IMG/VR virus record: IMGVR_UViG_2711768069_000001
Origin: a virus
Lineage: Monodnaviria > Loebvirae > Hofneiviricota > Faserviricetes > Tubulavirales > Inoviridae
Reading direction: 5' to 3' (one strand)
DNA: 10,788 bases
Both the position numbers and the translations under genes were made by a program. This document shows positions 7,464 through 9,028 of this stretch, one piece after another. The notes below the pieces were generated by a model, which was not told the origin of the DNA, did not search any database, and saw only the letters and a list, made by a program, of their open reading frames with translations. Positions within the stretch are counted from its first letter, which is position 1. Every line of letters begins with the position of its first letter.

Positions 7464-7850
7464 ATGAGTGGTAATAATGATGGTAGCGGAGTAATTCTTC
7501 TTTGTATGGCTGGCGTAGGATTGGCTGGACTTTTTATCTCAAATACATTCGGTGTGCCTTTCCTTGAGGGCATTAAGATCCTTCCAAAATTATTAGTATG
7601 GCTTGTTGTTTTTGGTTTGATTGCTTATAGCGGTTTTTTACGTCCCGTTATACCAATTGGTCTTGCGACACTTTGGACGTGCTTCACTCCAATTCTCGAT
7701 TATAAAGCTGGATGGAGACCTGAAGATTCCTTTCAACCTGAAGTAGCCTGGTATGGGACTAGCTCAGGTCAAACAATAGTATTTTTTGCGATTCTAATTA
7801 TTGGGTATGGCATTCTTTATTGGATTAACAATAGAAATAGATATTATTGA
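7464..7850 (+). CDS. Cargo gene A: small polytopic membrane protein, 128 aa, 3-4 predicted TM helices, unknown function
   Basis: ATG at 7464 with GAGGAAGG Shine-Dalgarno. Hydrophobic segments at about residues 10-29, 38-57, 61-77 and 104-121. AT-rich coding sequence. Confidence 0.6.
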   Translation: MSGNNDGSGVILLCMAGVGLAGLFISNTFGVPFLEGIKILPKLLVWLVVFGLIAYSGFLRPVIPIGLATLWTCFTPILDYKAGWRPEDSFQPEVAWYGTSSGQTIVFFAILIIGYGILYWINNRNRYY

Positions 7851-7859
7851 GGTGTCAGA

Positions 7860-8129
7860 ATGAAAGATGAAAAGTATGAACGCCAAATTACATTACTCTG
7901 CCCGATTTGTGGAAACAGTCGATTGGAGCATGATGAGTTTACAAATGAAGTAACATGTATTTCTTGCGGAAAAACATCTAACTACGAACAGTTAACCGAA
8001 GATAATGGTGAACGCATTGATTTAGTTGCGAATGAAGTAGTGCGTGAAGTAAAAAACGATCTAGAGAAGCATTTTAATGACATGTTTAAAAAAGCGTTTA
8101 AAGGTAACAAAAATATAAGGATAAAATAA
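7860..8129 (+). CDS. Cargo gene B: Cys4 zinc-ribbon protein, 89 aa, unknown function
   Basis: CPICG...(17 aa)...CISCG motif followed by a charged, probably helical C-terminal region. GAGG Shine-Dalgarno 6 nt upstream. Stop overlaps the start of gene C (TAATG). Confidence 0.65.
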   Translation: MKDEKYERQITLLCPICGNSRLEHDEFTNEVTCISCGKTSNYEQLTEDNGERIDLVANEVVREVKNDLEKHFNDMFKKAFKGNKNIRIK

Positions 8130-8608
8130 TGACAATCAGTGACGCAATCGCTTTGGCTGCACTTGTAGTGTCCATCTATACAATCATATCCTCTGAAATC
8201 AAATCAAGAAAAAGCGATAAAGAACAAAGGGGTATAAAAGAAGAGCAGAACAGAATAAGGCGTCTCCTGCTTGATAAGGAAACCAAGCTAGCTTTGGAAG
8301 AAAAGAGAGCTGACATCAACGCTAATTTAGTCAAAATCGGCACAAATAAATATAGATTAAAGATTTTTAATAAAGGAAAGGCAGCGGCAAGAAGCGTTCG
8401 GATCGCATTTCCGGATAATGATGGAGAAGAGTTTCTGATCATGTCTGAAATCGAACGAAAGATGCCTTACGAAGTATTGTATCCACAACAAACGATTGAG
8501 TTAATTGCAAGTATACATATGGGATCAAAATCAAAATATAAAATTAGATTATTATGGTGTGATGATTACAATAAAATGAACGAACAAGACATTGTAGTTT
8601 CTATATAA
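8129..8608 (+). CDS. Cargo gene C: single-pass membrane-anchored protein, 159 aa, unknown function
   Basis: N-terminal TM helix (AIALAALVVSIYTIISS), then a Lys/Glu-rich helical segment and a C-terminal domain. AAGGA Shine-Dalgarno 7 nt upstream. Translationally coupled to gene B. Confidence 0.65.
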   Translation: MTISDAIALAALVVSIYTIISSEIKSRKSDKEQRGIKEEQNRIRRLLLDKETKLALEEKRADINANLVKIGTNKYRLKIFNKGKAAARSVRIAFPDNDGEEFLIMSEIERKMPYEVLYPQQTIELIASIHMGSKSKYKIRLLWCDDYNKMNEQDIVVSI

Positions 8609-8644
8609 CTTTGATATCACAAGTTAAATTAAAAGGAGATGCAA

Positions 8645-9028
8645 ATGAAAAATCACATTCTTACTATTAATGGTGTTTACGATTTAATAAGGGAGCACTA
8701 TATTTCAAACTTCCCATATAAATTACAATTTCAAGCGGTAGATGTACTTAATAAATATATTAAGCTACATAATGAACATGCATTTTTAACTAAAACAGAC
8801 GATGGGAAGTATGTTTTTGAGAATCCTGAGCCAACGCCTAAAGATGACAGTCCTTTTGTAAACTCATTAGGTTCATCGGCAAGAACTATGGAAAATTACT
8901 TATCCCAAGAAACTGGGATACAAAATCTTTTTCAAGATATCAATGCTATGCATGAATGGTTGCTTCAATCTGATTTTATTCGCGAGGGTATAGCGACTGA
9001 AAAAATGCTGAGTACACACAAATTGTAA
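8645..9028 (+). CDS. Cargo gene D: hypothetical soluble protein, 127 aa from ATG at 8645 (track ORF starts at 8639)
   Basis: AAGGAG Shine-Dalgarno 6 nt before the 8645 ATG. No recognisable motif. Confidence 0.6.
   Translation: MKNHILTINGVYDLIREHYISNFPYKLQFQAVDVLNKYIKLHNEHAFLTKTDDGKYVFENPEPTPKDDSPFVNSLGSSARTMENYLSQETGIQNLFQDINAMHEWLLQSDFIREGIATEKMLSTHKL

Follow-up and report, generated by a model that had tools for sequence, protein, structure and literature searches.

A four-gene cargo cassette in an exchangeable slot of a dif-integrated filamentous prophage and its possible role in phage defence

What could four small, AT-rich genes contribute to a filamentous phage when they lie outside its conserved core, between the repressor gene and the attachment site? 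The question is raised by an Inoviridae genome from the IMG/VR collection (record IMGVR_UViG_2711768069_000001), a stretch of 10,788 nucleotides (nt) that was analysed at its full length and is referred to here as the window. The genes, named A to D, occupy positions 7464 to 9028. The best reading of the sequence is that they form a cassette of lysogenic-conversion cargo, which occupies the exchangeable slot of an inovirus of the CTXphi type that integrates at dif by means of XerCD. As to what this cargo does, the function tentatively favoured, at somewhat less than an even chance, is that of a membrane-tethered module for anti-phage defence or superinfection exclusion that would be expressed in the lysogen.

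The cassette and its slot in the prophage

All four genes lie on the plus strand and have a good ribosome-binding site. Gene A (7464-7850), with the Shine-Dalgarno sequence GAGGAAGG, encodes a protein of 128 amino acids (aa) with four hydrophobic segments according to hydropathy analysis. Gene B (7860-8129) encodes an 89-aa Cys4 zinc ribbon of the form CPxCG...CxxCG; gene C (8129-8608), whose ATG overlaps the B stop codon, a 159-aa protein with one N-terminal transmembrane (TM) segment; and gene D (8645-9028) a soluble protein of 127 aa. A and B are separated by 9 nt, one fewer than the initial annotation had counted; the 1-nt overlap that it described between B and C is seen as ATAATG, and its distance of 36 nt between C and D holds when measured to the ATG at 8645. 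The start that it had chosen for D, at 8639, is probably two codons too long, because 8645 has AAGGAG 6 nt upstream and is the start used in all homologues. The GC content of the four genes is 33-38%, as against 41% in the phage core and 47.5% in hipBA. Selection was estimated by the Nei-Gojobori method, comparing B, C and D with a Klebsiella copy and A to D with the related locus L013. The ratio of nonsynonymous to synonymous substitution rates (dN/dS) was 0.12 for B, 0.06 for C and 0.19 for D in the first comparison, and in the second the proportion of nonsynonymous differences (pN) was far below that of synonymous ones (pS) for all four. Purifying selection acts on each of A to D, and the earlier description of tightly packed, AT-rich plus-strand genes with good Shine-Dalgarno sites thus corresponds to real genes. 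These values bear directly on the idea that the cassette consists of decaying, non-functional open reading frames (ORFs). It could appeal to the shortage of known domains, the zinc ribbon excepted, and to the rarity of the exact cassette in E. coli, where it was found at megablast level in 0 of 5426 complete genomes. The idea is contradicted by the dN/dS range of 0.06-0.19, by residues conserved across phyla and by the intact ribosome-binding sites and gene coupling, and its probability is close to negligible.

The position of the cassette was established from both sides. On the right, hipA and hipB in the window are 99.9% identical to those of K-12 and mark a segment of the E. coli chromosome; homology to K-12 sets in at 9106, within the dif site of 28 bp that lies beside hipA. 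Left of dif is a filamentous prophage, the core genes of which are all on the minus strand in the order pIV-like secretin (938-2197), Zot/pI, pVI, pIII, pVIII, pV and pII replication protein (5618-6817). Divergent from this core, and preceding the cassette on its own strand, is the gene for a helix-turn-helix (HTH) repressor of 177 aa (6836-7369, plus strand; Pfam HTH_3, 5.7e-7; phrog_3557, transcriptional regulator, 3e-24), which also gives a weak match to RstR. Since K-12 homology starts at 9106 within dif, the cassette lies between the repressor gene and the att site, as first proposed. Searches of the ORF list and with the Pfam and PHROG models revealed no integrase ORF in the window, so that the phage is integrated at the chromosomal dif without an integrase of its own, in the manner of CTXphi-type integrative mobile elements exploiting Xer (IMEXs).

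The exchangeable nature of this position became apparent from the comparison with sister prophages. The same prophage is present in eight complete E. coli genomes with 99.3-99.8% identity, and the cassette is in none of them. Relative to one of these sisters, L003, identity is 100% up to 7431 and again from 9035, which delimits a variable slot at 7432-9034 between a conserved intergenic element and attP. The slot of L003 holds a single gene, whose 358-aa product has two TM segments; a frameshifted version of this gene occurs in L041, and still other genes are found in other inoviruses at the same dif site. That sister prophages whose cores are 99.7% identical carry a different gene there bears out the proposal of an accessory, or moron, slot outside the core. 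The 358-aa protein shares with C the N-terminal TM segment and a FNKGK...NV.I.FP motif (hhalign probability 71% over 35 columns). Sister prophages at dif (L003, 1-13356; L004) form partial or complete tandem repeats, the arrangement that CTXphi needs for virion production.

The left anchor of the slot is a conserved inovirus intergenic element of about 58 nt with three small hairpins (7375-7433). It is 93% identical to positions 5045-5101 of the major intergenic region of If1, some 210 nt beyond gene IV. A segment of Alteromonas phage phiAFP1 located just after the regulator gene of that phage matches it with 97.6% identity over 41 nt; its conservation across such distant hosts is striking. 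In L013 the element is 98% identical and lies upstream of A, in L005 it stands between the A and C homologues (A' and C'), and diverged copies abut the end of an insertion sequence (IS) in L001 and L007. The fold of the element taken alone is not significant (z -1.6). The element is probably a phage cis-element and is possibly related to the origin.

The right anchor is attP. A site scan identified a dif-like site, attP1, at 9031-9057 on the plus strand (GGTTCGCACAA-TGACG-TTATGCTAAAG), a GC-rich hairpin (9058-9090) with its stem at 9058-9068/9080-9090 and TTTT behind it and, at 9091-9123 on the minus strand, a hybrid of attP2 and dif that represents attR (GGTGCGCATAA-TGTCATACACG-TTATGTTGAAA). 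The XerC arm of the hybrid is chromosomal, and the junction between prophage and chromosome falls in its central region, at about 9106-9112. The two inverted dif-like sites (9025-9126) would fold into one single-stranded DNA (ssDNA) hairpin of about 100 nt in the packaged strand, with the GC-rich hairpin at its apex. The minus strand of 9020-9135 folds with a dG of -32.9 kcal/mol (z -7.5), and none of 200 shuffled sequences was as stable. Folded inverted dif-like sites in the packaged strand define the attP of CTXphi (PMC3089051; PMC4266046), and by this fold the hairpin region is an attP of the same type; an intact version is present in L041, an episomal relative of 9.6 kb. The strong hairpin noted earlier behind D is real, whereas its interpretation as a terminator and nothing else was rejected on the basis of the attP fold. 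Because TTTT follows, the hairpin is also a plausible terminator of the cassette, and transcription may end there. A search of 6700-9300 with Rfam yielded nothing apart from an miRNA artefact, below threshold, at the attP hairpin.

The arrangement resembles that of the accessory genes YPO2271/2272 of YpfPhi, orf1/orf1a of CUS-1 and ctxAB of CTXphi, which likewise belong to dif-integrating, XerCD-dependent filamentous prophages. In those phages too, unrelated ORFs, accessory or unknown in function, lie beside an RstR-like repressor gene or att and vary between near-identical phages (PMC4266046). The proteins of the present cassette belong to different families, and its B-C pair is not confined to phages.

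The phage genome carries at its far end a HigA-family antitoxin gene (164-430, minus strand; TIGR02607, 3.6e-15) that overlaps a small downstream ORF (1-228, minus strand), and a HigB-like toxin is not visible in the window. Downstream of the pIV-like gene is an ORF of 150 aa (489-941, minus strand), the C-terminus of which weakly matches an Arc-like repressor (phrog_3180, 2e-3); the RefSeq version of this ORF in sister prophages is shorter (104 aa).

The B-C pair and its partners

The products of A to D each match a PHROG family, in all cases one of unknown function, and none of them shows homology to the inovirus core (the Ff set), in agreement with the initial view that they do not belong to the conserved Ff core. 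The accompanying remark that none was recognisable stands as far as the functions of these PHROGs are concerned and fails for B, which reaches 43.3 bits with the NCBIfam model ECs_2282_CxxC (NF047912) against a curated cut-off of 37 (E 2.6e-11; residues 10-62). This model covers only the zinc-ribbon part of 60 residues, and the family name carries no function. For A, C and D, searches with Pfam, NCBIfam and PADLOC gave no significant family. Nor does the cassette behave as the single four-gene system first envisaged: B and C are an old, widespread pair, and A and D are lineage-specific and are also found apart.

In an alignment of 15 sequences of B, residues C14, C17, C33, C36, R8, L45, I53 and F80 are invariant and a basic C-terminal tail (KKAFKGNKNIRIK) is conserved. 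The zinc ribbon resembles those of S27e and TFIIB, and a B profile searched against the PDB sequences retrieved generic zinc ribbons only; profiles of C and D had no match in the same sequences. For C, which matches phrog_6723 at 1e-67, AlphaFold2 predicted a TM segment at residues 3-24, a helix at 30-58 and a seven-stranded, CARDB/Ig-like beta-sandwich at 63-158, with a mean pLDDT (predicted local distance difference test) of 80 that rises to about 90 in the beta domain. CARDB matches were obtained for three of 49 members of the C family (best 2.5e-4), and C of the window matches TRAP_beta at 5.5e-3, below the cut-off. Lysine and arginine residues cluster after the TM segment and, by the positive-inside rule, C is therefore predicted to have an N-out/C-in topology, with its coiled coil and beta-sandwich in the cytoplasm together with B.

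The C-family profile collected 1180 clusters at 50% identity (E <=1e-3), nearly all of 145-165 aa, and the best 150 of these contained no fused domains. In a scan of species-representative genomes and IMG/VR, which yielded 13 loci extending from Yersinia to Caulobacter and including a metagenome-assembled genome (MAG) of Coriobacteriia, a B-like ORF of about 90 aa was located at most 6 nt upstream of the C-like gene, or overlapping it, in every case (13/13). The adjacency recurs in plasmids of the Cupriavidus pMOL30 type, and an Acinetobacter copy of C is preceded by a remnant of B that was cut by IS26. The pair is present as well in environmental genera, among them Marinobacter, Zobellella, Caulobacter and Cupriavidus, and the conservation of residues spans phyla. 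Judged by this distribution, B-C is the core of the cassette and a widespread pair. A tblastn search with C gave no match among 50,697 phage records. As side observations, a gene or fragment for an SOS-response-associated peptidase (SRAP) lies directly 3′ of C in L023 (4459-5145; a Cupriavidus plasmid) and L020 (4667-4864; a Serratia plasmid), which may be a coincidence or a second recurrent neighbour, and L034, labelled as a Methanoculleus MAG, carries bacterial-type B-C, CARF and TIR genes and is doubtful in its assignment.

The other two genes have a much narrower range. A matches phrog_4174 at 1e-35 and has six homologue clusters, found in Enterobacterales only; it is 38% identical to the A' protein encoded after the repressor gene in L005 and occurs alone after the repressor gene in L015-L017. 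D matches phrog_22661 at 3e-35, and its homologues are confined to Enterobacter, Klebsiella and E. coli; its AlphaFold2 model is poor (pLDDT 46), and it matched nothing in PDB or Pfam. By their distribution, A and D are lineage-specific accessory partners, confined to Enterobacterales. The segment 8927-9100, which comprises the last 100 nt or so of D together with attP, has 85-90% DNA identity to loci whose D proteins are only about 47% identical. Such conservation may reflect a tract of recombination that D shares with attP, or else a constraint on the DNA itself.

Defence, addiction or virulence

The preferred reading, an anti-phage defence or superinfection-exclusion module, is favoured because of the defence-island neighbourhoods of the pair, the match of B to a candidate defence protein, the variable slot and the location on the repressor strand without an intervening consensus promoter; the constancy of the B-C pairing, the large and uniform C family and the purifying selection also count in its favour. 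When eight B-C loci were inspected by hand, PADLOC defence genes were found within 5 kb of the pair in seven. These neighbours were Old (8e-87); SIR2/ThsA (3e-23) with a type I restriction enzyme; CARF (1.5e-61) with TIR (9e-15); PDC-S05 (4e-9); an ATPase-Toprim protein (5e-42) with TIR (4e-23); AbiZ (5e-15); and a type IIG restriction-modification protein (8e-234). On plasmids, the cassette has NACHT, DUF4238 and SIR2 neighbours. Further, B of the window matches the PADLOC profile PDC-M14A at 2.9e-6, and its homologues match over their full length in eight of 11 cases. The alignments run from about position 15 to 99 of the 152 positions of a profile that is about 50 residues longer than B, and the E-values are modest (1e-3 to 2e-8). 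PDC-M14, like HEC-08 and PDC-S64, was itself flagged by its defence-island context. A, C and D have no PADLOC match, the full set of PDC-M14 components is missing, and the PADLOC run suggested in the initial annotation detected no system as such. A precedent for defence or exclusion borne by an inovirus is given by Pf KKP (PMC11341870).

How such a module might work can be outlined as follows. A consensus sigma-70 promoter was not found between the repressor gene and the cassette; in the lysogen, expression of A to D would probably come from read-through out of the repressor gene. The cI-rexA-rexB operon of lambda has accessory genes 3′ of the repressor gene, on the same strand and expressed in the lysogen, one of them for a small protein with four TM segments. 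The cassette would be analogous in its place downstream of a repressor gene on the same strand, in its expected expression in the lysogen and in the four putative TM segments of A; it differs in having no sequence similarity to the lambda genes, in the type of phage and in that its co-transcription with the repressor gene is presumed. B would be a cytoplasmic Cys4 zinc-ribbon protein that works together with C, a bitopic inner-membrane protein to which it is translationally coupled. B might sense a cue of infection and C act at the membrane, where it would either block a membrane step of infection or abort the infection.

Several points weigh against the defence reading. The sample of inspected neighbourhoods is small and had no matched background, and hot spots of mobile elements collect many kinds of cargo, including toxin-antitoxin modules. 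None of the 49 C-family members matched a PDC-M14 component. Neither PADLOC nor Pfam has a model that places the cassette in a system or gives it an effector domain, no enzymatic domain was found in its proteins, and the matches of the C model in Foldseek are to generic Ig-like folds only. In L005, A', C' and D' occur without B. A literature search for PDC-M14, DUF8453, ECs_2282 and the RefSeq accessions found nothing, and no experimental paper on the A to D proteins was found. The expression pattern, the B-C complex, the topology and the defence function with its mechanism are, moreover, all inferred.

The main rival explanation makes of the cassette an addiction or stabilisation module of the toxin-antitoxin kind, in which C would be a membrane toxin and B its neutraliser, and which would keep the IMEX, prophage or plasmid in place. 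Translational coupling of the sort seen between B and C is typical of toxin-antitoxin pairs, the cassettes on plasmids are found among ParDE, TacAT and BrnTA modules, the N-terminal part of C shows weak similarity to a PHROG holin family (1.1e-3), and the phage also carries a HigA-like gene. Nevertheless, searches with Pfam, NCBIfam and PADLOC related none of A to D to a known toxin-antitoxin family, the well-folded beta-sandwich of 95 aa in C is unusual for a small membrane toxin, and loci of the L005 type, with C'-D' and no B, persist in several genomes. An addiction module is accordingly regarded as unlikely.

Cargo that modulates the host for fitness or virulence, such as ctxAB in CTXphi or the genes behind the fitness effects of CUS-1 and YpfPhi, is a further alternative. 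The position next to attP is that of ctxAB (PMC4266046), and the BCD trio is common on the ColV-type plasmids of avian pathogenic (APEC) and extraintestinal pathogenic (ExPEC) E. coli. The products of the cassette are, however, small cytoplasmic or inner-membrane proteins without secretion signals, and B-C is also at home in the environmental genera listed above, which makes a virulence role very improbable.

Possible spread of the cassette by way of dif-like sites

Does the association with dif say something about function, or about the vehicle? The co-occurrence that the initial annotation proposed to look for is extensive and modular. All four genes occur together in L013. BCD is present on plasmids and chromosomes of E. 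coli and Klebsiella; the Klebsiella plasmid copy is 86% identical in DNA exactly from the start codon of B to position 9100. A more distant trio, B'C'D' (40-48% protein identity), is found in 79 complete genomes; in E. coli LD93-1 it adjoins hipA/dif, it is also borne by APEC/ExPEC plasmids, and its B' copies are named ECs_2282 family putative zinc-binding protein by RefSeq. B-C without D, as in L012, L020 and L027, is carried by Lonsdalea, by Serratia and by other inoviruses of IMG/VR. Both on plasmids and in chromosomes, BCD or ABCD form mini-elements linked to dif, often adjoining an IS of the IS1202 family. The same attP1 site stands 3′ of the cassette in nearly every enterobacterial case, namely in L001, L002, L005, L007-L011, L013, L025, L027, L031 and L041, and a dif-like site precedes the cassette in L001, L002, L007-L011, L013 and L020; all but the last of these loci also have the attP1 site with its 5-nt spacer downstream. 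Two observations concern L031. Between the inovirus attP and hipA it holds a further block of about 3.4 kb with four ORFs (8484-12024), bounded by another hybrid dif site, which points to a stacking of IMEXs at dif in E. coli. Its label is Candidatus Nanosynbacter MAG and, since E. coli hipA and dif are present in it along with an inovirus, it is almost certainly E. coli contamination of that MAG.

IS1202-family (ISNCY) elements were located at 3177-4950 in L001, 1-1580 in L013, 6100-7730 in L007 and 2104-3720 in L020. One end of the IS lies 5 bp from the XerC arm of the upstream dif or dif-like site and the other abuts the conserved intergenic element. Targeting of dif with this 5-bp spacing from the XerC arm has been described for the IS1202 family (PMC10132070), and by the spacing found here it extends to Enterobacterales. 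At loci whose BCD proteins share only 40-48% identity, the transposases are 94.6% identical, so that the IS insertions are independent events; the possibility that transposase and BCD form one co-evolving unit was rejected on the same figures. The elements resemble the pdif modules of Acinetobacter, IMEXs and the arrangements of dif-targeting IS1202-family IS in that BCD or ABCD likewise lie between a dif/pdif site and a dif-like attP. They differ from classical pdif modules, since the enterobacterial cases are CTX-type attP remnants of inoviruses with an atypical downstream spacer.

This distribution is also the basis of the explanation that the cassette serves the phage life cycle through Xer and dif, by modulating XerCD, handling the ssDNA attP, controlling lysogeny or assisting assembly at the membrane. 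Every copy in Enterobacterales, and one on an Acinetobacter plasmid, adjoins a dif-like or pdif site, usually abutting attP, and the terminal part of D shares its DNA-level conservation with attP. XafT of TLCphi sets a precedent for a Xer factor that an IMEX encodes. Outside Enterobacterales, by contrast, no Xer-like site or phage gene was detected near B-C in any of the nine loci scanned (9/9). A functional linkage of B-C to Xer was rejected because the association is absent outside Enterobacterales and Acinetobacter, and the linkage to dif therefore reflects the vehicle, which suffices to explain it. Besides, the sister phages that have no cassette are tandem, apparently intact prophages and an episome, and integration of the CTX type requires no phage protein (PMC3089051). 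A life-cycle role of this kind is considered improbable.

A broader version of the defence reading is possible and is put forward with clearly less confidence. According to it, B-C would be a widespread, unrecognised two-gene anti-phage system, consisting of a zinc-ribbon sensor and a membrane-anchored coiled-coil/CARDB-like effector or anchor, that was captured in Enterobacterales together with A and D. The result would be a plug-in cassette, a counterpart of the Acinetobacter dif modules, that moves among inoviruses, conjugative plasmids and dif sites by recombination at the intergenic element and attP.

Part of this picture was already known, namely the att-adjacent accessory ORFs of CUS-1, YpfPhi and CTXphi-type phages, the carriage of defence by inoviruses (PMC11341870) and the name of the B family. 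The comparisons add three things: a division of the four genes into a B-C pair of pan-proteobacterial range and its add-ons, the defence-island context of that pair, and a defined slot with conserved flanks from which dif-linked spread appears to have reached virulence plasmids.

In conclusion, E. coli, Salmonella, Klebsiella and Yersinia commonly harbour filamentous prophages at dif, and the ORFs next to att in these phages have counted as unknown since the description of CUS-1 and YpfPhi. The slot that holds them now has boundaries and exchangeable alleles, one of which is built on a pair spread across Proteobacteria among defence genes. A vague moron is thereby turned into a compact, clonable two-gene hypothesis of about 750 bp in total. 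If the pair does defend its host, it would constitute a new membrane-tethered system that looks devoid of an effector, and inoviruses and Xer sites would be vehicles for defence cargo on virulence plasmids.

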